Shown here: positions 515 through 17,875 of the stretch, one piece after another
Layout: each line of letters begins with the position of its first letter
How positions within the stretch are numbered: the stretch's first letter is position 1
From: Marinilactibacillus psychrotolerans
GTDB lineage: Bacteria; Bacillota; Bacilli; Lactobacillales; Carnobacteriaceae_A
DNA length: 24,000 bases
Direction of reading: 5' to 3'
NCBI RefSeq assembly: GCF_900101525.1
Contig: NZ_FMZD01000004.1
Location: forward strand, 55,102-79,101
Program-made: the position numbers and the translations under genes
Notes under the pieces: model-generated
The model's database searches: none
Told to the model about the DNA's origin: nothing
The model's input: only the letters and a program-made list of their open reading frames with translations

Positions 515-1336
515 ATGCTTGAAACATTTAGTTCATTTCATCCCGTTTTACAAGCTTTAATAGCGGGCCTTTTTACTTGGAGTTGTACAATATTCGGCTC
601 TGCATTTGTTTTCTTATTTAAAGATATCAACCGTAAATTTTTAGACGTCATGAATGGTTTTGCAGCAGGCGTCATGATAGCTGCATCATTCTGGTCACTA
701 TTAGCCCCTTCTATCTCCAATGCGGAAGATAGCGGATATGGTATCTGGGCTTTTGTGCCAGCTGCTGTTGGCTTTATGATGGGAGGGTTTTTCTTAAGGT
801 TGATTGATGTAGTGATTCCGCATTTACATTTGAATGAACCGGAAGAAAATAGTGAAGGACCAAAAACAAAAGCTTCCAAGAACTTGCTTCTTTTTCTAGC
901 GATTACCATACATAATATACCAGAAGGTTTATCTGTTGGGGTTGCATTTGGAGCGGTGGTAGCAGGAGCAGCAAACGGAGATGCCTTTTTGAGTGCTGTG
1001 GGCTTAGCTATTGGGATCGGAATCCAAAACATACCAGAAGGGTCTGCTTTATCTATGCCGATTAGAGCAGCAGGCACCAGTAGACTTAAAGCATTCAATT
1101 ATGGACAGCTTTCAGCGATTGTTGAACCAATTGCTGCGGTTATCGGGGCAGTGGCAGTTATTTCAATGGCAGCCATCTTACCGTATGCATTAGCATTTGC
1201 AGCCGGCGCTATGATTTTTGTCGTAGTTGAAGAGTTGATCCCAGAATCTCAGACAAATGGGAATAAAGATATTGCAACCTTATCCTTGATGGTTGGATTT
1301 GTGATTATGATGGTTTTAGACGTTGCATTAGGATAA
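515..1336 (+). CDS. ZIP-family (ZupT/GufA-like) divalent metal (zinc) transporter
   Basis: 273-aa polytopic membrane protein with HNIPEG and QNIPEG motifs typical of ZIP permeases. A GAAGGAG RBS lies upstream of the ATG. Confidence 0.85.
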   Translation: MLETFSSFHPVLQALIAGLFTWSCTIFGSAFVFLFKDINRKFLDVMNGFAAGVMIAASFWSLLAPSISNAEDSGYGIWAFVPAAVGFMMGGFFLRLIDVVIPHLHLNEPEENSEGPKTKASKNLLLFLAITIHNIPEGLSVGVAFGAVVAGAANGDAFLSAVGLAIGIGIQNIPEGSALSMPIRAAGTSRLKAFNYGQLSAIVEPIAAVIGAVAVISMAAILPYALAFAAGAMIFVVVEELIPESQTNGNKDIATLSLMVGFVIMMVLDVALG

Positions 1337-1367
1337 CTCTAAAATAGAATAGATCAATAGCTGGTAC

Positions 1368-1403
1368 AGAGGGATTCCTAAATATGGAAATGACAATCCC
1401 TCT
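1368..1403 (+). terminator. Hairpin downstream of the ZIP gene (9-bp stem AGAGGGATT/AATCCCTCT) with no clear U-tract
   Basis: Inverted repeat read directly at 1368-1376 and 1395-1403. An extended -10 (TGcTATATT, 1423-1431) for secG follows. Confidence 0.35.
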
Positions 1404-1470
1404 AGTAATACAAAAACGTTTGTGCTATATTAAGTAGTGAGAGACTTATGAAAGGGAGGTCAATTCCGAT

Positions 1471-1701
1471 ATGTATGATATATTATTAGGATTTATGCTC
1501 GTATTATCAGTATTTATTATAATCGTAGTTGCAATGCAGCCAACTAAAACGCAGAATGCGTCAAATGCCTTTTTAGGTGGTGCTAGTCAATTATTTGGAA
1601 AACAAAAAGCAAGAGGATTTGAAGCTGTTTTGATTAAAACGACAATCGTCTGCATTGTACTTTTCTTTGTTATTGCTTTAGCCCTAACTCGATTCTTTTA
1701 A
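1471..1701 (+). CDS. secG: Preprotein translocase subunit SecG
   Basis: 76 aa with two TM helices and the typical SecG sequence (MQPTKTQNASNAFLGGASQLFG). It sits in the conserved secG-est-rnr-smpB context. Confidence 0.9.
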   Translation: MYDILLGFMLVLSVFIIIVVAMQPTKTQNASNAFLGGASQLFGKQKARGFEAVLIKTTIVCIVLFFVIALALTRFF

Positions 1702-5519: not shown

Positions 5520-6347
5520 TTAATTTTTCTTATGATAGAGGTACATTGTAATAGGAGCAAAAATAATAAGCAAAGTGCCAGAAGCTGTAAGGGTCCAGAA
5601 AATATCTGAGAGCATAACATTTCCATGCATTAAGCCTCTTACTGCATCAACAAGAATAGTTATTGGATTAATATGAACAAATAGTTCCAAAGAATGAGGC
5701 ATTGTCTCTGGATCTACAAACGCACTGCTTAAGAATGTGAGTGGGAAAATAACCATCATTGCAATAGTCATTAAAGCGTTTTCGGATTTTAAAACCAAAG
5801 CTAATACATTCCAAATCCAGGATAAACAAAATGCAAAGACTAGCAATAAGGCCACTGCAAAAATCAGTCCAAAGAATCCGCCTTGGGGTCTGAAACCTAA
5901 GATCATTGCAAAAATAATCATTATAATGGAAGCGATCGTGTAGCGTAAGGTATCAAACAACATTGCACCAACTAATGAAGATGGAGACCAGATCGGTAAG
6001 GTCCGCTGTCGATCAAAAAAGCCTTTTTGGATATCTTTATTTAAATCGAGTCCAGTATACATCGTGATTTGAGTCACTGCTTGTACTAAGATTCCCGGCA
6101 AAATGAATTGAAGATATTCTTGAACGGAACCCGCAATGGCGCCTCCGAAAAGATACGTAAACAACAGTAAAAATAAAATGGGCATAGCTGTAATATCCAA
6201 TAAAGCCGTCGGTGCATGCTTCGTTCTGAGAAGAGCCCTCATGGCAAAAATTCTTACAGAAGTAAAAGAATTAGGGGGCGATGGCCGCTTTTTAGAAATG
6301 ATAGTCTTCTGTAAGCGATCTTGACTAATCGACTGATTCTGATCCAT
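5520..6347 (-). CDS. ABC-2 type exporter permease (DrrB-like)
   Basis: 275-aa six-TM protein immediately downstream of a DrrA-like ATPase; AAGGAGG RBS. Confidence 0.85.
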   Translation of the reverse strand: MDQNQSISQDRLQKTIISKKRPSPPNSFTSVRIFAMRALLRTKHAPTALLDITAMPILFLLLFTYLFGGAIAGSVQEYLQFILPGILVQAVTQITMYTGLDLNKDIQKGFFDRQRTLPIWSPSSLVGAMLFDTLRYTIASIIMIIFAMILGFRPQGGFFGLIFAVALLLVFAFCLSWIWNVLALVLKSENALMTIAMMVIFPLTFLSSAFVDPETMPHSLELFVHINPITILVDAVRGLMHGNVMLSDIFWTLTASGTLLIIFAPITMYLYHKKN

Positions 6348-6368
6348 AAAAATCCTCCTTATATAAAT

Positions 6369-7316
6369 TTATTCATCTTCAGTTAGAGCCAAAAATACTT
6401 CATCTAAACTGGGCTGACTAAGGGAAAAAGTAACATATTCAATATGCTGAGCAGTTAAATCAGTTAAAGCTTTAGCAGAAGCAGAAGGATCATCTACTTT
6501 AATAAACAATTGCAAACTCTTTGAGGATTCATGTAAAACAGATCCAACACTTTCTTCTAGAATAGTTTCTGCTTTTTCTCGATCAGCTTCGTTCTTTAAA
6601 GTGATATGGAGCATACCTGAGCCGACAGATGATTTTAGTTCTTGTGCTGTTCCTTCAGCAATGATTTTTCCTTTATTGATTACAGCAATTCGGTCTGCTA
6701 ACTGATCAGCCTCTTCTAAATATTGAGTAGTCAGTAAAACAGTGGTCCCGGCTGATGTTAATGCACGAATGACAGCCCAGACTTGGTTTCTGCTTCTAGG
6801 ATCTAATCCTGTCGTTGGTTCATCTAAAAATAATAAGTCAGGGGTCACTACAATACTAGCGGCGATATCTAGACGTCGGCGCATACCGCCAGAGTATTCT
6901 TTAGCTTGTTTAGAAGCTGCTTCCGCTAGCCCGAAAGCTTCCAGTAGTTCAGCTGAACGGATTTTAGCTTCTTTTTTGCTATAGCCCATCAGTCTGGAAA
7001 TCATAACCAGGTTCTCAGTACCTGTCAAATCTTCATCCACAGAAGCATACTGTCCAGTCAGCGCGATACGGGGACGGATTTTTTTAGCTTCTTTGGCAAC
7101 ATCATGACCGAATATCTTAGCTGTTCCATTATCAATTTTTAGCAAAGTAGTTAACATTTTTAAAGTAGTGGTTTTACCAGCACCGTTTGGTCCAAGAAAG
7201 CCATAAACAGTTCCTTTCTGGATTTTCAAGTCAATCTCGTCAACTGCAGTAAAATCCCCAAATTGTTTGTTTAACCCGTGCACTTCAACAGCGTAATCTT
7301 TTATTTCATTTATCAT
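6369..7316 (-). CDS. ABC transporter ATP-binding protein (DrrA/daunorubicin-resistance-like)
   Basis: Walker [13 protein letters not shown] signature YSGGMRRRL, Walker [13 protein letters not shown]. It also has the C-terminal extension typical of DrrA-type ATPases. Confidence 0.9.
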
Positions 7317-11334: not shown

Positions 11335-11478
11335 ATAAAGAGTTATCTTCTTAAATATGAATCTCTGTTAGTATTGTTTCTTTGGTCTTTTACTTACGCC
11401 TCTTCAAGTAAGTTTATACAGTAACGTCTTTAGGGTGAGAGTTATTTTGTTGCTTTTTTGTAGCTAAGGTTCTGTATT

Positions 11479-11961
11479 CTATTTTCCTTTTTCAATTTGA
11501 ATATTCGTTTCATTTTCAGTAGCACTTTGAGAAACTAATCTTGCTTGTTCTGCTTTTAATTTTTCTACTTCTTTTTTTAGCTGATTGATCTGCTCATCAA
11601 TATTTGCTAAAGTGACTACTTTGCTTTGTTCTTCCGGGGACATATTTTCTTGTTCTAATTGCTCTTTTTTATTTTGCAAAGCAGTACTATCGAATGTCAC
11701 CAAAATCTCTCCTTTTTTGACCTCTTGATTTTCTTCAAGATTATTTACTTTGATTTTTGTTTCTAGTGGCATATGTTGGTCTTCTGTTTTAGTTGCGGTT
11801 AGTTGAGCCGATGTCCGGATAAAAACTTCTTCTTTTGTAAAAGTCAAGAATAGACTAACCAAGAGAAAGAAAATAATTACAGAGTATAGCACCCACCGAT
11901 AGAATTTCTGATGTTGTTGACTATATATACCTGAGTGGTCAAGCCAGTCGTTCTTATGCAT
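11479..11961 (-). CDS. Bacteriocin ABC-transporter accessory protein (HlyD/ComB-like); N-terminal fragment only (160 aa)
   Basis: It has an N-terminal cytoplasmic stretch, one TM helix (WVLYSVIIFFLLVSLFLTF), the start of the lipoyl-like segment (EVKKGEILVTFDS) and the beginning of a coiled coil. It lies 18 nt downstream of the C39 ABC exporter gene. Typical family members are roughly three times longer. Confidence 0.7.
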   Translation of the reverse strand: MHKNDWLDHSGIYSQQHQKFYRWVLYSVIIFFLLVSLFLTFTKEEVFIRTSAQLTATKTEDQHMPLETKIKVNNLEENQEVKKGEILVTFDSTALQNKKEQLEQENMSPEEQSKVVTLANIDEQINQLKKEVEKLKAEQARLVSQSATENETNIQIEKGK

Positions 11962-11979
11962 TGTTTTGCCTTCCTTATC

Positions 11980-14133
11980 TTAAATTTCCCATAATTGTTG
12001 GTAGAGGCCCTCATTGTAACGCAAATCATCATGGGTACCTTGCTCCACCAATTTTCCTTCGTTAAGTACTAAAATTTGATTACAGACTTTGGCTATAGGT
12101 AAATGATGAGCAATAAAAATCAAGGTTTTCATTTCTAAATTTATCAGGTAGTCTAAAATTGTATGCTCTAAGAACCTATCCAGTCCACTGGTCGCCTCAT
12201 CTAATATTAGGACATCAGCGTCTTTCAATAAGGCACGAGCAATAGCCAATCTTTGCCGTTGACCACCAGAAAGATTGGTTCCGCCCTCTTCTATTATTGT
12301 GTCGTAACGTAAGGGTTGCTGGTTAATAAATGCGCTCAATTGAACTGCATCGCAAACTTCAACTATTCGTTCAAAGCTAGGTGAGATATCTAAGCTAAAG
12401 GTTAAATTCTCAATGATAGATCCACTAAAAAAGAATGATTCCTGGGGAATATAAGTTACTCGGTCGCGTAATTGATGAAAAGGAATGTCTAAATGGTTGA
12501 TATGACCATAACGAATAGTTCCTTCAGACGGGGAGTAAAAATTTACTAGTAATTTTGCTAAGGTAGATTTTCCCGAACCACTAACGCCAACAAAGGCAAC
12601 CTTACTAAATGGTGGAATAGTACAAGATAGATTACTCAAAGTTGGAGGATTCATTTTGTAAGAAAATGAAACATCTTCTAAGCTAATTCCCTGTTGAAAT
12701 GTTTGATCTGTAACAACACGATTAGGGTGTTGGTTAACTGACTCCGTTTCAATAGCAAGAATTTCATTTAAACGTTTGTTGGCAACTTGTGCTGTCTGCA
12801 TTTTTACCTGTAAATTAATGATATTTTGTAAAGGATCAGTAAAAAAAACAAGCAGCGCATTATAAGTAATAAGTTGACCTAAGCTAATCGTACCATCCAT
12901 GACGTAATAAGAACCTACCCATAAAATTAGTGCGCTACTGATTAACTGAATAGCGTGTTTGATGCCTTGTTGGATATTGTCTAAGGTTGACGTACGAAAA
13001 GACTTTTTCATCAATTTAACAAATTCTCGATCGACTAGATCATAGACTTTTTCTTCACCATTGTATGCCTTAATGGTTTCAATCCCCTTAAGGCTTTCAA
13101 TAATACTAGAATTTAAAGTTGCACCAGCAATCATTTCTTCTTGATTCGCTTTTTCATGGTTTTTGACAAAAGCTAAAATAGCAACTAAATAAAAAGGTAA
13201 CGAGGCTAAAGTGATCAAAAATAAGGTAACATTTTGAAAGGCTAAGGTAATCCCTACAATTACGACCATACCAATGTCTAAAAAAACAGACAAGGTGGCA
13301 CTTGCTAAAGCATCAATAATTTTATTAGCGTCAAGAAAACGAGAAATGATTTCTCCCGATTTACGAGTAGCAAAAAAATTCATTGGCAAAGAAAGTACGT
13401 GCTTAAAATATTGAAGCATTATCGTCATACTCATACGTTGGCCCAATATAACTAAGATATAATTTCGGCTATATTCAAATATGATACGAAAGAAGTAGAT
13501 AACAATTAATCCCACAGAGACAACGTTTAAAGCAGAACGGGCTTGGTTAGGAATAAAAAAATCGAGAATTCCTTGAAAATAGAAAGAACTTCCTATGCCA
13601 AAAGAAGTAATAAAAATTGATGCTAAAATAATATTAAAAACAAGCCCTTTTTGATGCCAAATAACTGGTAAAAAAGAATTTATGCTCGCAACTTTTTCTT
13701 TACTAGGAAAGTAAGTTTCTTTGGGAGTAGGCAATAATAAAATACCTGTCCATTCTTTAGCAAATTCTTCAATCGTTATTTTTACTTTCCCTATAGCTGG
13801 GTCATCAATTAATAAGGTCTTTCCTTTTATTCCATAAACAACTACATAATGCATATAGCTATTTTCAATTACAATATGTGCAATTAAAGGTAGTGGTAAC
13901 TCTTTTTCTCCCCACACATCATTATCCGCTTGAACAGCGGGGCAATCAAAAGATAAATGTTCAAATGTTTTCTTTAATCCAAAAGCTGTGGTTCCTTCTA
14001 AATCAGTTCCTGAAAAATCACGTAATTTGTGAATGGAAATTTCTGTCTTGTAATGTTTTAAAATCATGGATATACAAGAAACACCACAATCTTTTTCGTC
14101 TTGTTGCTGAATATGAGTAAAAAGTTTCATCAA
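11980..14133 (-). CDS. Bacteriocin-processing ABC exporter with an N-terminal C39 double-glycine peptidase domain
   Basis: C39 catalytic Cys context QQDEKDCGVSCISMILKHY, six-TM domain, Walker A GVSGSGKST, signature LSGGQRQRL, Walker B LILDEATSGLD. The start is TTG 14133 or ATG 14130. Confidence 0.95.
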   Translation of the reverse strand: MMKLFTHIQQQDEKDCGVSCISMILKHYKTEISIHKLRDFSGTDLEGTTAFGLKKTFEHLSFDCPAVQADNDVWGEKELPLPLIAHIVIENSYMHYVVVYGIKGKTLLIDDPAIGKVKITIEEFAKEWTGILLLPTPKETYFPSKEKVASINSFLPVIWHQKGLVFNIILASIFITSFGIGSSFYFQGILDFFIPNQARSALNVVSVGLIVIYFFRIIFEYSRNYILVILGQRMSMTIMLQYFKHVLSLPMNFFATRKSGEIISRFLDANKIIDALASATLSVFLDIGMVVIVGITLAFQNVTLFLITLASLPFYLVAILAFVKNHEKANQEEMIAGATLNSSIIESLKGIETIKAYNGEEKVYDLVDREFVKLMKKSFRTSTLDNIQQGIKHAIQLISSALILWVGSYYVMDGTISLGQLITYNALLVFFTDPLQNIINLQVKMQTAQVANKRLNEILAIETESVNQHPNRVVTDQTFQQGISLEDVSFSYKMNPPTLSNLSCTIPPFSKVAFVGVSGSGKSTLAKLLVNFYSPSEGTIRYGHINHLDIPFHQLRDRVTYIPQESFFFSGSIIENLTFSLDISPSFERIVEVCDAVQLSAFINQQPLRYDTIIEEGGTNLSGGQRQRLAIARALLKDADVLILDEATSGLDRFLEHTILDYLINLEMKTLIFIAHHLPIAKVCNQILVLNEGKLVEQGTHDDLRYNEGLYQQLWEI

Positions 14134-14166
14134 TGTACAGTGGTCCTTTCAAAATTAAGTTAATAT

Positions 14167-14907
14167 TTATTTCAATTTTTCTTTAATTAGTTTTGCTTTC
14201 CCTAATGCAAAGTTTCTTACTAAGTCAGATTCAAAATAAACAGCACGTTTTTTAAAATTAATTTCTTTTGCATTAATTAAATTCACTAAACAAGATCGAT
14301 TAATCTTGAATAAAGTAGGGTATTTTTTTTCTAATTCAACTAACTTTCCATAAAATTCATATTGACCATTTTTAGTATATAGAGATAATCTATGGGGAAG
14401 CTTAGAAGATTCTAAAAAATAAATATCTTGTAAATCAAGAGTAAATGTTTGAGACCCGATAGAAAATATAAATGCTTGGTTTAAACTAATTTTTGCTTCA
14501 TCAATTCTTTTCTGAGCAAGGAGTAGTAAATCTACAATTTCTGACCGATAGTTATCCAAAGGTTGATCTTTTATCACAAAACCTAATGTTTCCACACGTC
14601 TTTTAATAGTTAAAGGGATCATTTCATCATGTGTTGTAATGAAAATGATTTTTGCTTGGACATCTTGCGCACGTATTTTTTCCGCTAGATCAATTCCGGT
14701 TATAGTGTGGTTTAAATCAATATCTAAAAAGTAAATTCCCTGCTTAGGTTTAAACTTTTTTAAGTAATTTTCTACTTCGTCTGGGCTTTGTGTTTTTAAA
14801 CTGATTTGGAAAAGATCACTATGAAAAAGTGTGAAATTTTGAATGATTGTTTCAATCTGTTGTAGTTGAATAAGTTGATCTTCACAAATAATAATAGGAT
14901 AAGTCAT
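14167..14907 (-). CDS. LytTR-family (AgrA/ComE-like) response regulator
   Basis: N-terminal receiver domain (ICEDQ..., phospho-Asp context YFLDIDL) and a C-terminal LytTR DNA-binding domain (...INRSCLVNL...). Confidence 0.9.
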   Translation of the reverse strand: MTYPIIICEDQLIQLQQIETIIQNFTLFHSDLFQISLKTQSPDEVENYLKKFKPKQGIYFLDIDLNHTITGIDLAEKIRAQDVQAKIIFITTHDEMIPLTIKRRVETLGFVIKDQPLDNYRSEIVDLLLLAQKRIDEAKISLNQAFIFSIGSQTFTLDLQDIYFLESSKLPHRLSLYTKNGQYEFYGKLVELEKKYPTLFKINRSCLVNLINAKEINFKKRAVYFESDLVRNFALGKAKLIKEKLK

Positions 14908-14920
14908 AATAGTTCCTTTC

Positions 14921-16210
14921 TTACCACATCAGGATAATACTAGTGATGAATGTAGAGTTTTTCATTTTGTATTGAATAAACATATTTTGAGTTTTTTCAT
15001 TTATTTCTTGAATCGTGTTCATTCCTAATCCTTTATGATCCGCTTTTGTTGAAACACCCTTTTCCATCAACTTTCTGATAGAAAGGTTAGTTCCTTTATA
15101 GCTATTTTCAAGAAGAAATTCAAGCTGTGAGTCATCTTGATAAATCATAAGAGATAATTTCCGTTCTTCGCTTTCTTTAGAGGCTTCTATTGCATTATCA
15201 AGAACAATACCCAATATTCTTACACAATCAAAAATCGGAATAGGGACTAGTTCAATAGTTTGGTTACATTCTAATTGAATATCTAACTGATTTTCATTTG
15301 CTTGATAAATTTTCGAAATAAAAAGACTTTTTAAATATGAATTTTTTATATTCTTTAATTGTTGACTGCTACTTGATATATCCTTTACAAAATAATGATT
15401 AGAATACTTATCTAATTCATGGACTTGTTTCGAAAAATCTATGTCTTTTTTTAAGTAAGAGATTTCTTTTAAACTGAGTAATAAATTTTTGTAATCATGT
15501 TTAAACTTATTTAGTTTTTCTTGACTTTGTTCTAACTGATCAGTGTATCTCTTTAAATAAATAAGTTCTTGTTCTTTCAACCGTTGCTCATATGTTTCTT
15601 TTTGCTTCTTAGTTGTTCGAACACCTAAAATAAAAATAAATATGGTCTGCACGACAAGGAAAACTAAAATTCCTAAAATGAATTGATCAAATACTTTATA
15701 TTGATGCGCAGTATATGATATGAAGAAAGAAATTCCCCATAGGTAAATCATGCACATAAAAGTTGTAATAGAACTATAGCTTTTAATGATTTTCTGAATA
15801 CTTACCTTTTTGTATAACAAAACAAATATAGTTAGCAAGAAACATTCAAAAATTATTTGTATAATTACATAGTCATAATCATTAACTCCTTGGAAAAATC
15901 TGGGTATCATCAATAATGAGCTAATGATTGATATACTATAACTTACGAGTAAACTTAGCATGAGCTTATTTAAAAGGACAATTTTCTTGTTCCCGTTCTC
16001 TCTCAAGAAAAAATAACTACTAATTATCGGTATCAAATCAGAAAAATCGGTAAATAATTCGATAAAAAAGGTAATTGGAATAAGCACAATTACCTTTGAA
16101 TATTTACTAATTGTAGCTTCATCTTTAGTAACAAAGAATATTAAGAAGTAAAAAATAAAAATATTTATTAACATACGTAGTAAGTAAGCCTTTGTATCAA
16201 TGATAATCAA
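14921..16210 (-). CDS. Peptide-pheromone sensor histidine kinase (HPK10, AgrC/ComD-like)
   Basis: Polytopic N-terminal half with multiple TM helices. H-box FKHDYKNLL, N-box LGIVLDNAIEA and G-box region HKGLGMN. TTG start at 16210 follows GGGAGG. Confidence 0.85.
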   Translation of the reverse strand: MIIIDTKAYLLRMLINIFIFYFLIFFVTKDEATISKYSKVIVLIPITFFIELFTDFSDLIPIISSYFFLRENGNKKIVLLNKLMLSLLVSYSISIISSLLMIPRFFQGVNDYDYVIIQIIFECFLLTIFVLLYKKVSIQKIIKSYSSITTFMCMIYLWGISFFISYTAHQYKVFDQFILGILVFLVVQTIFIFILGVRTTKKQKETYEQRLKEQELIYLKRYTDQLEQSQEKLNKFKHDYKNLLLSLKEISYLKKDIDFSKQVHELDKYSNHYFVKDISSSSQQLKNIKNSYLKSLFISKIYQANENQLDIQLECNQTIELVPIPIFDCVRILGIVLDNAIEASKESEERKLSLMIYQDDSQLEFLLENSYKGTNLSIRKLMEKGVSTKADHKGLGMNTIQEINEKTQNMFIQYKMKNSTFITSIILMW

Positions 16211-16252
16211 GAAAATACCTCCCTGATTAAATTATACGAAAGTTAAAGATTA

Positions 16253-16396
16253 TTAGCAGTTTTTGAAAAAAGAAAAGACACATTGTGCTAAATTAGATGA
16301 GGGGGCCCCTTTAGTTACTGATTTATTACCGCCTCGTATTTGTTTTAATTTTTTTTCAGAACACTCTTCAATTTTTAAGTCTTTTTTATCGTTCAC
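16253..16396 (-). CDS. Induction peptide (bacteriocin-like pheromone) precursor, 47 aa, with a double-glycine leader
   Basis: Absent from the ORF track (<60 aa). My manual translation is (M)NDKKDLKIEECSEKKLKQIRGG / NKSVTKGAPSSNLAQCVFSFFKNC. GTG start at 16396-16394 lies 7 nt after a GGAGGG RBS (16409-16404, - strand). The stop is 42 nt upstream of the kinase gene, the canonical IP-HK-RR order. Confidence 0.8.
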   Translation of the reverse strand: MNDKKDLKIEECSEKKLKQIRGGNKSVTKGAPSSNLAQCVFSFFKNC

Positions 16397-16460
16397 TTTT
16401 ATTCCCTCCAATTTTTTTACAGAGATAGTATGCCATACATTTAGTTATAAAACGAAAAAC

Positions 16461-16491
16461 TTTCCTGAAACGCTAGTAAATTATTCCTGAA
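16461..16491 (-). promoter_or_regulatory. Pair of LytTR-type direct repeats (TTCAGGAAT / TTCAGGAAA, 22-bp phasing) for the IP-HK-RR-ABC operon promoter
   Basis: On the + strand these read ATTCCTGAA (16483-16491) and TTTCCTGAA (16461-16469). A candidate -10 (CATACT/TACTAT, - strand, 16425-16432) lies about 28-30 nt beyond the proximal repeat. Confidence 0.6.
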
Positions 16492-16516
16492 CAATATAAC
16501 CGATAGAAAGTATAGG

Positions 16517-16547
16517 TTAAGGAAGAGTATCGTTGTAGTTCAGGAAT
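16517..16547 (+). promoter_or_regulatory. Pair of LytTR-type direct repeats (TTAAGGAAG / TTCAGGAAT, 22-bp phasing) for the bacteriocin gene promoter
   Basis: Repeats lie at 16517-16525 and 16539-16547. A candidate extended -10 TGgTACAGT (16573-16581) is 28 nt after the proximal repeat; an alternative -10 is TATTAT at 16587-16592. Confidence 0.6.
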
Positions 16548-16623
16548 AAACATTCCACGAATAAAAAAATTGTGGTACAGTCAGCGTATTATCAAAATAT
16601 TTTATGAAGGAGCGTGTGATTAC

Positions 16624-16809
16624 ATGCAAAAGGTTAAAGAACTTAGCGTTAAAGAAATGCAACAAACTAAAGGAGGGAAATATTATGGAAATGGTGTTTC
16701 TTGTAATAAAAAAGGATGCACTGTAGATTGGGGAAAAGCTATTGGAATTATCGGAAATAATGCAGCAGCAAATTGGGCTACAGGCGGAGCCGCTGGTTGG
16801 AATAAATGA
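16624..16809 (+). CDS. Class IIa (pediocin-like) prebacteriocin: 18-aa double-glycine leader plus 43-aa mature peptide
   Basis: [18 protein letters not shown] / [43 protein letters not shown]. It has the YGNGV pediocin box, the Cys9/Cys14 disulfide pair and a GG cleavage site. AAGGAG RBS at 16607-16612. The track's 16570 start is an upstream extension. Confidence 0.95.
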
Positions 16810-16850
16810 TAACTAAAGATACTCATTTTTATATTGTAAAAAAATAAAGA

Positions 16851-16891
16851 AAATACCCATCCATGGTATTACATAACATAGATGGGTATTT
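16851..16891 (+). terminator. Hairpin between the bacteriocin and immunity genes (11-bp stem, 19-nt loop), a possible attenuating terminator
   Basis: AAATACCCATC (16851-16861) pairs with GATGGGTATTT (16881-16891); only a short T-rich tail follows. Confidence 0.45.
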
Positions 16892-17066
16892 ATACTTGCA
16901 CGGGTCTTTTTAGGCAAAGTTTGATATCGAACATGGGTTATAGTTATATTTTATAGTTTCAACAATTATGTTCTACTAGTCAAGCTAAGGCATTTTCAAC
17001 GGCATGTAAAGAAATATACAATATCAATCAAAATTAAAAGTATATTGAATTTAGGAAGGATATTTT

Positions 17067-17363
17067 ATGAGCAAATTAAAATGGTTTTCCGGAGGAAATG
17101 AACGGGCGAAACAAGCAGAAAAAATTATGACTGATTTATTAGATGATCTAAAAACAGACTTAGGTAACGAGTCGCTACAAAAAGTGTTAGAGAATTATCT
17201 TGAAGAGTTAAAACAAAAGAGCGCTTCTGTTCCTATGATTTTGAGTCGAATGAACTTAGATATTTCTAAAGCAATCAGAAATGATCGAGCTGTTTTATCA
17301 GACTATCAATCAAAAAAATTAAAAGAGTTGACTTCCGTATCCAATATTAGATATAAATATTAA
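17067..17363 (+). CDS. Class IIa bacteriocin immunity protein (four-helix-bundle, EntA/PisI/MunC-type)
   Basis: 98 aa. The start MSKLKWFSGG and end SNIRYKY closely resemble my recollection of the mundticin/piscicolin immunity proteins. It lies downstream of the bacteriocin gene; AGGAAGGA RBS. Confidence 0.9.
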   Translation: MSKLKWFSGGNERAKQAEKIMTDLLDDLKTDLGNESLQKVLENYLEELKQKSASVPMILSRMNLDISKAIRNDRAVLSDYQSKKLKELTSVSNIRYKY

Positions 17364-17437
17364 TAGTGGATACAAAGGTATGACTCCAATATAATAGTTT
17401 GTCAGTGTGATAAAATGAATCGTACTGTAGTCTATGC

Positions 17438-17487: not shown

Positions 17488-17508
17488 TTACGATTGAACT
17501 TACACAAT

Positions 17509-17875
17509 GGAGTTGAGGGGAGTCGAACCCCTGTCCAGACACATTGGCACTCAAGCCTCTACGTTCATAGTTACACTATTAGATTTCGCTCAACATTAGC
17601 CGCATAACAGGCGTCATGTGTCGCTAGTCTGGTAATCTCTTCTTATTCTTACAGACGGAAAGAATAAGCGTATCCCACTTAATTATAGGACCCAAACGTG
17701 ACACGTGGGCGATGCCAGTTCGGATCACGCTAATAAGCTGTTATTACGCAGCTAAAGCGTAAGTGTTATTATTATTGTTTGCAGTTATATTTAACTGTGA
17801 CGTTGGTATGCAGTCTCGTCACCTGCAGAACGCAACTCAAGCTCAATCTATGCCTGTCGAATCCGTAACAACCCC
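17509..17875 (-). ncRNA. ssrA: tmRNA (SsrA), about 367 nt; tag reading frame GCA AAC AAT AAT AAT AAC ACT TAC GCT TTA GCT GCG TAA TAA
   Basis: On the - strand the 5' end reads GGGGTTGTTACGGATTCGACAGG and the 3' end GGACAGGGGTTCGACTCCCCTCAACTCCA. The acceptor stem has a G3:U pair (Ala identity). The UUAAAUAUAACU element sits directly before the resume codon, as I recall for Bacillus tmRNA. The tag is (A)ANNNNNTYALAA with two stops (17741-17782). CCA is not encoded. Confidence 0.95.

Follow-up and report, generated by a model that had tools for sequence, protein, structure and literature searches.

The open reading frame (ORF) at positions 16624..16809 of the Marinilactibacillus psychrotolerans DNA analyzed here (a stretch of 24,000 nucleotides [nt], referred to as the window) is, judged from its sequence, the precursor of a class IIa bacteriocin with a double-glycine leader. 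It is very probably the pisA homologue of a piscicolin-126-type gene cluster and a natural variant of piscicolin 126.2/CM22, with an apparent mosaic structure that is not a product of recombination. The peptide is thus an ordinary piscicolin-126/subgroup I-1 member of class IIa in a new genus, and its sequence is already public.

Translation of the ORF, which lies on the plus strand, exactly reproduced the 61-amino-acid (aa) precursor and 43-aa core given in a preliminary description of this DNA. The 61 codons start with an ATG at 16624, which is preceded by GAAGGAG, and end with a TGA stop codon at 16807-16809; a TTG start at 16570, which would give an ORF of 79 aa, was rejected, since the ribosome-binding site and public gene calls favor the ATG. 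The precursor scored 44.8 bits with Pfam family PF01721 (Class II bacteriocin), whose curated cut-off is 24.5 (E value of 1.3e-11), which is far above chance. Close to its N terminus, the mature peptide carries the YGNGV box, followed by Cys9 and Cys14, for which a disulfide is predicted, then an Asp17 hinge and tryptophans at positions 18, 33, and 41. In oxidized form, the peptide has a calculated average mass of 4385.9 Da and a monoisotopic mass of 4383.1 Da. Mature residues 25-37 fit IGNNxxANxxTGG, the C-terminal consensus by which subgroup I-1 of class IIa has been defined (PMC3546714). The locus likewise has the surroundings of a class IIa gene, namely, a C39-domain ABC transporter to go with the GG leader and an adjoining EntA_Immun-type immunity gene. 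The following features were assigned in the cluster.

11479..11961, minus strand: truncated export accessory gene (pisE/LcnD-like), 160 aa (homology and a weak BSH_LcnD/Biotin_lipoyl_2 Pfam match)
11980..14133, minus strand: pisT, ABC transporter with an N-terminal C39 peptidase domain (Pfam, motifs, and 88% identity to the Carnobacterium maltaromaticum gene)
14167..14907, minus strand: pisR, response regulator with a LytTR DNA-binding domain, 246 aa (Pfam Response_reg and LytTR)
14921..16210, minus strand: pisK, membrane histidine kinase (HPK10/AgrC-like), 429 aa (Pfam HATPase_c_5, 1.3e-14)
16253..16396, minus strand: pisN, induction-peptide precursor, 47 aa, GTG start, MNDKKDLKIEECSEKKLKQIRGG/NKSVTKGAPSSNLAQCVFSFFKNC (Pfam DUF5841, 5.8e-12)
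16462..16491, minus strand: direct-repeat pair TTCAGGAA-N14-TTCAGGAA facing the pisN-K-R-T-E operon, putative PisR/LytTR boxes (pattern search)
16517..16546, plus strand: direct-repeat pair TTAAGGAA-N14-TTCAGGAA facing the bacteriocin gene, putative PisR/LytTR boxes (pattern search)
16624..16677, plus strand: double-glycine leader of the bacteriocin precursor, 18 aa, ending in TKGG (translation)
16678..16809, plus strand: mature class IIa bacteriocin, 43 aa, and stop codon (translation, Pfam, and alignments)
16851..16891, plus strand: hairpin (19-nt arms) downstream of the bacteriocin gene, probably a partial terminator (inverted repeat and fold)
17067..17363, plus strand: pisI, immunity protein, 98 aa, 257 nt downstream of the bacteriocin gene (Pfam EntA_Immun)
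17505..17875, minus strand: tmRNA (ssrA) gene at the boundary of the locus, 3' end toward pisI (Rfam RF00023, 186.8 bits)

PisT matched Peptidase_C39 (6.9e-46), ABC_membrane (3.1e-61), and ABC_tran (7e-30), and its DCG Cys motif, Walker A motif (GSGKST), LSGGQ signature, and Walker B motif (ILDE) are intact. The pisN product has a GG-type leader and is 47 aa long in public assemblies; a TTG start at 16411 was rejected, because it overlaps the GGAGG ribosome-binding site and public gene calls favor the GTG at 16396. PisI matched EntA_Immun (PF08951) with an E value of 3.3e-9 and, over its full length, PDB entry 2K19, the "putative piscicolin 126 immunity protein" (E value of 1.6e-49). The hairpin at 16851..16891 folds with −19.1 kcal/mol (z of −2.3); since it has no clear T tract, it may act as a terminator only putatively. 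The GC content was 27.5-30% over positions 14001..17000, which hold the kinase, regulator, pheromone, and bacteriocin genes, compared to 33-40% in most of the window.

The assignment to the piscicolin type rests on the locus as a whole. Positions 11619..17389 were collinear with three C. maltaromaticum loci, at 86.3% nt identity over 5776 nt with 4 gaps, and the identity to the C. maltaromaticum piscicolin 126.2 locus was uniform, ranging from 76 to 92% per 200 nt. The piscicolin 126.2/CM22 cluster of C. maltaromaticum has the same order, with pisE-T-R-K-N divergent from pisA-pisI, and, pisE excepted, the same gene lengths and spacers. Besides PisT, identities to the C. maltaromaticum genes were 93% for PisR (both 246 aa), 81% for PisK (both 429 aa), 79% for PisN, 92% for PisA, and 87% for PisI. 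This piscicolin 126 architecture has been described for Carnobacterium (PMC2040187, PMC9504619, PMC12634766). The window shares the gene order, the nucleotide collinearity, and the PisI-type immunity protein of such clusters and lacks a full-length PisE (∼326 aa); because its PisE has only 160 aa, we class the cluster as one of the piscicolin type with a truncated accessory gene. A sakacin P (spp) cluster would have another gene order and a SpiA-type immunity protein, which the window does not hold: its immunity protein was 85 to 87% identical to PisI (of the 126 and 126.2 loci), 64% identical to MunC, and 53% identical to SpiA.

The closest relative of the precursor was a C. maltaromaticum peptide, P0003, that was found on more than 100 contigs and consists of an 18-aa leader and a 44-aa core. 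It has a computed average mass of 4431.88 Da and a pI of 9.19 and differs from piscicolin 126 by T3N, T16K, V25L, N30K, S37G, K38T, L51W, and T52A (87.1% identity). The reference sequence taken for piscicolin 126 is consistent with P0020 and with the published list of substitutions. That list, given for piscicolin 126.2, comprises eight substitutions relative to piscicolin 126, of which T3N and T16K fall in the leader and V25L changes the YGNGV box (PMC9504619). Piscicolin CM22 has been described with ∼87% identity to piscicolin 126, a mass of 4431.93 Da, and a pI of 9.19 (PMC12634766). P0003 matches both descriptions, and the three are one peptide. Database entries for the P0003 precursor also exist for Listeria monocytogenes (EAK9357334.1) and as "MULTISPECIES [Bacilli]"; the Listeria entry would reflect either contamination or mixing in the assembly or a class IIa producer gene in a genus that is normally the target.

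The 227-nt intergenic region between the two divergent transcription units contains the only two occurrences of TTMAGGAA-N14-TTCAGGAA in the 24 kb, with 0 expected from shuffles, and the two box pairs point in opposite directions. Of the minus-strand pair, the Carnobacterium piscicolin loci conserve the left box, and their second box is degenerate. On the side of the bacteriocin gene, the proximal boxes, the element GTTCAGGAATAA, and a downstream, −10-like TACAGTCAG are invariant in M. psychrotolerans and both C. maltaromaticum loci. From this arrangement we infer that the paired repeats may function as PisR/LytTR boxes. A generic scan for sigma-70 promoters and terminators found promoter-like sites to be no more frequent than in shuffles.

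From what is known of the family, the C39 domain of PisT would cut the 61-aa precursor after the Gly-Gly of the leader and export the peptide, in which a disulfide between Cys9 and Cys14 would form. The 43-aa peptide would then bind the mannose-PTS IIC/IID permease of Listeria and related Gram-positive bacteria and open it as a pore, and the PisI-type immunity protein would protect the producer. PisN, PisK, and PisR would form a three-component peptide-pheromone (quorum-sensing) system that switches on pisA and the divergent pisN-K-R-T-E operon, with control presumably acting via the paired TTCAGGAA boxes in the shared intergenic region. Production of the peptide by this strain and an anti-Listeria activity via the mannose-PTS would be predicted by analogy.

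One feature of the locus speaks against such production. The pisE product has 160 aa instead of 326 aa. Its homology to C. maltaromaticum PisE (68.6% identity) is confined to residues 1-118, and the final ∼45 codons specify a coiled-coil-like tail of unrelated sequence. The DNA ceases to match the Carnobacterium locus at 11619, and no trace of the missing part of pisE was found in the window. The segment 11437..11618 has no counterpart in C. maltaromaticum and is absent from M. psychrotolerans strains that hold only the immunity gene. Such strains are frequent: at 6 of the 8 places in M. psychrotolerans with an identical immunity protein (L014, L016, L017, L018, L019, and L020), the producer genes pisE'-T-R-K-N are missing (∼11437..16645 deleted), and what is left of pisA is a pseudogene remnant that retains the 3' part of the leader and an intact C-terminal coding part and has lost the YGNGV box. 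These loci also keep the hairpin and pisI.

The truncation of PisE could impair export, and the high share of immunity-only places suggests that the species is losing production while retaining immunity. It is therefore conceivable, if on balance doubtful, that the locus is decaying, with an intact structural gene from which no bacteriocin is exported owing to the truncated accessory protein. Data from cheese point the same way. Among smear isolates from Vacherin Mont-d'Or, bacteriocin genes showed no clear association with inhibition of Listeria, and two M. psychrotolerans cheese strains (FAM 23997 and FAM 24102), for which genome mining named "B7: sakacin P" as the closest bacteriocin type, were not clearly better inhibitors than strains without the gene (PMC11545730, from 2024). 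Since that paper and its supplements give no sequence, their "sakacin P"-type gene is only presumed to be the gene in the window. Against decay, pisA, pisN, pisK, pisR, and pisT are all full length with conserved motifs, the promoter boxes are intact, and the truncated pisE ORF retains the N-terminal membrane segment. Moreover, the mundticin KS locus has no accessory gene and consists of only a structural gene, a transporter gene, and an immunity gene, so that accessory proteins are not universally required; Kawamoto et al. are said to have found in 2002 that this three-gene system suffices for production.

The site of the locus is shared between genera. The pis locus abuts the tmRNA gene in both Marinilactibacillus and Carnobacterium, including the contig that carries a piscicolin-126-type locus (L006; tmRNA at 1127..1523). 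In the C. maltaromaticum loci L003 and L005, an HTH-DUF3173-Rep_trans-integrase element lies between pisI and the 3' end of the tmRNA gene (12511..12876 in L003). The window locus differs from the piscicolin 126.2 locus in the genus that carries it, in the truncated accessory gene, and in that pisI and the tmRNA gene are not separated by an integrase/Rep element. Between the genera, the pis locus is 86% identical, compared to 80% for the tmRNA gene and 65 to 68% for neighboring housekeeping genes; together with the adjacency and the low GC content, this suggests horizontal transfer at a tmRNA-linked hot spot. A far-reaching and rather improbable extension of this reading would be that a functional, pheromone-regulated variant was gained by inter-genus transfer at the tmRNA-adjacent site, that it is exported despite the half-length accessory protein, that it is kept in cheese and marine populations as a polymorphism of producers and immune-only "cheaters," and that K20, V7, and the loss of Gly44 shift its potency or target range relative to piscicolin 126.2.

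Two further observations concern gene mobility in these regions. At positions 1269..1565 of L003, beyond pisE, one C. maltaromaticum genome carries a second, orphan PisI-type immunity gene that is 96 to 97% identical to the PisI of the locus, and the ∼118 nt upstream of it match positions 16949..17066 of the window, which suggests that pisI moves with its own promoter. Elsewhere in the window, smpB and a His_Phos_1 gene are separated by two minus-strand genes at 5520..7316, one for a 275-aa protein and one for a 315-aa ABC ATPase that has a DrrA domain at its C terminus; in five strains (L014, L016, L018, L019, and L020), the gene tables place His_Phos_1 directly after smpB. Judged from these gene tables, 5520..7316 appears to be a second insertion between smpB and ssrA that varies among strains.

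The DNA stretch is 100% identical to that of M. psychrotolerans GCA_019650195.1 (contig BKBI01000008.1), and the exact 61-aa precursor is already deposited in NCBI/UniRef (WP_091760632.1, GEL66777.1, GEQ35776.1, and SDC33922.1) under the generic name "leucocin A/sakacin P family class II bacteriocin." The peptide had been put forward as previously unnamed; this holds in that we found no published name for the exact mature peptide in the literature (BAGEL, BACTIBASE, and subscription journals lay outside the search), although the precursor itself is not new to the databases. The identical mature peptide was absent from every other protein cluster (representatives and members) and from other species. 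A scan of species-representative genomes returned 8 relatives, all of which differed from it in the mature part; neither the M. psychrotolerans nor the C. maltaromaticum representative was matched, consistent with strain-variable loci. On PLSDB plasmids, tblastn did not find the identical peptide; its matches were partial and confined to the N-terminal part, since low-complexity filtering removes the Ala/Gly-rich C-terminal half.

That a bacteriocin with exactly this mature sequence already bears a name, so that nothing here is new, seems improbable. The deposited precursor would fit that idea, as would the at least two published names of the nearest relative, piscicolin 126.2 and piscicolin CM22. 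Further names of the piscicolin 126.2 peptide are perhaps maltaricin CPN and piscicocin CS526, with masses of ∼4427 and ∼4430 Da; the computed monoisotopic oxidized mass of piscicolin 126.2 is 4427.10 Da. On the other side, the exact mature sequence occurred only in the M. psychrotolerans entry among cluster representatives and members, a full-text literature search with sequence strings of the mature peptide and near relatives returned no paper with these sequences, and no paper was found that ties Marinilactibacillus to piscicolin or to any named class IIa peptide.

The preliminary description had proposed that the peptide is an N/C chimera of a mundticin/piscicolin-like and a sakacin-P-like bacteriocin. 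Half by half, there is indeed such a likeness. In the N-terminal half, the window peptide differs from mundticin KS by 1 aa and from sakacin P by 5 aa; in the C-terminal half, it differs from sakacin P by 2 aa and from mundticin KS by 4 aa. The corresponding nucleotide differences in codons 1-21 and codons 22-43 were 9/63 and 14/66 for mundticin KS and 17/63 and 7/66 for sakacin P. For this triplet, a 2-by-2 contrast of the halves gave a Fisher P value of 0.04 for nucleotides and 0.24 for amino acids. The pattern disappears once pis126.2 is included: it differs from the window gene by 8/63 in codons 1-21 and by 4/66 in codons 22-43, so that the C-terminal half is also nearer to pis126.2 than to sakacin P, and the half contrast of pis126.2 with sakacin P gave a P value of 1.0. 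Nothing in the gene thus looks recombinant, since its nearest relative is pis126.2 in both halves and the identity along the locus is uniform, albeit at the low power afforded by 129 nt.

Nor is the C-terminal half with Trp33 specific to sakacin P. Among 19 cluster representatives of subgroup I-1, the 11-residue segment with Trp33 occurs in 9, which include peptides from Vagococcus, several Enterococcus species, and metagenomes as well as piscicolin 126.2; W33 was likewise found in 9 and A34 in 14 of them. From the consensus of these representatives, the window peptide departs at 2 positions, fewer than any other of the 19, and at both positions it carries the second most common residue. Being closest to the family consensus, it looks like a mixture of whichever two divergent members it is compared with: wherever subgroup I-1 varies, it carries the majority residue or a near-majority one and therefore matches each reference in the half in which that reference has not diverged. 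Sakacin P has diverged mainly in its N-terminal half (HCGKHS) and mundticin mainly in its C-terminal half, and, as far as these alignments go, this divergence accounts for the triplet pattern, which is not due to a breakpoint in the window gene. The locus agrees with this, being piscicolin type throughout: the sakacin P locus has the unidirectional order sppIP-K-R-A-spiA-T-E, and its DNA matches the window only in short patches of 69 to 77% identity. A true recombinant, with an N-terminal half from a mundticin/piscicolin-like gene and a C-terminal half from a sakacin-P-like gene, is accordingly most improbable, and what little probability we leave to it reflects the low power of so short a gene. 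Because the peptide is not a domain chimera, it tells us nothing new about target choice or immunity recognition in class IIa; PisI proteins that are 97% identical serve Leu33/Thr34 and Trp33/Ala34 piscicolins alike.

Another peptide may be more rewarding in this respect. P0043 (61 aa, on 20 metagenome contigs) has the leader of piscicolin 126.2 except for Q2 in place of K2, and its mature part diverges completely after the first 21 letters, which match. By its sequence, P0043 would be a better candidate than the window peptide for a modular exchange between leader and core or between N- and C-terminal halves.

The peptide described here adds one natural sequence to subgroup I-1, which is consensus-like and has Lys20 and three tryptophans. 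Its source is a salt- and cold-tolerant bacterium of smear cheese, which makes it relevant to the control of Listeria on cheese rinds. More useful biology lies in its surroundings, namely, an accessory gene that is cut short, a deletion derivative with immunity only that is widespread, and a site next to the tmRNA gene that is shared with Carnobacterium.

Among known bacteriocins, piscicolin 126.2 is the closest, with a mature peptide that is the same at 41 of 43 positions, among them a 17-residue segment. Relative to it, the window peptide has L7V, which gives a canonical YGNGV box, and T20K, and it lacks Gly44 through a single change from GGA to TGA at 16807. The leaders are identical at 15 of 18 positions, with three substitutions. 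Piscicolin 126 (C. maltaromaticum JG126/UAL26) has the same locus type and tmRNA adjacency and shares V7 and K20 with the window peptide. It differs in the mature part by K12N, G19S, W33L, and A34T (window to piscicolin 126) and by an extra Gly44. The leader had been called close to that of piscicolin 126, and the database sequence of the piscicolin-126-type leader bears this out, with 14 of 18 positions identical and 4 different. The piscicolin 126 locus has ∼81% nt identity to the window over pisA-pisI, and its immunity protein is 85% identical.

Sakacin P (Latilactobacillus sakei/curvatus) likewise has 43 aa ending in GWNK, with tryptophans at positions 18, 33, and 41 and the same 11-residue C-terminal segment with Trp33. 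Its database sequence differs from the window peptide by the 7 substitutions that had been estimated, 5 of them in the N-terminal half; NMR structures are available (1OG7 and 1OHM). The mundticin KS/enterocin CRL35 group and enterocin HF share VSCNKKGC, another 10-residue segment, and the subgroup I-1 motif with the window peptide. About 4 differences from mundticin had been estimated, and the database sequence of mundticin KS gives 5, namely, T15S, A29S, W33L, N42K, and K43S (window to mundticin KS). Its locus, munA-munB-munC, has no regulatory genes either. The solved relatives closest to the window peptide, by cryo-electron microscopy and NMR, are 7VLY, 1OG7, and 2N4K, and the last of these, enterocin HF, is the best-scoring solved structure. 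Finally, an unnamed peptide of Vagococcus fluvialis (P0022, at L009 and L022), also of 43 aa and ending in GWNK, is identical to the window peptide from residue 16 to the end and differs from it by three substitutions, S8T, N10D, and T15R (window to Vagococcus). Its leader and intergenic region are very different from those of the window, and its immunity protein is 56% identical, yet a divergent IP-HK-RR operon adjoins the structural and immunity genes there as it does in M. psychrotolerans.
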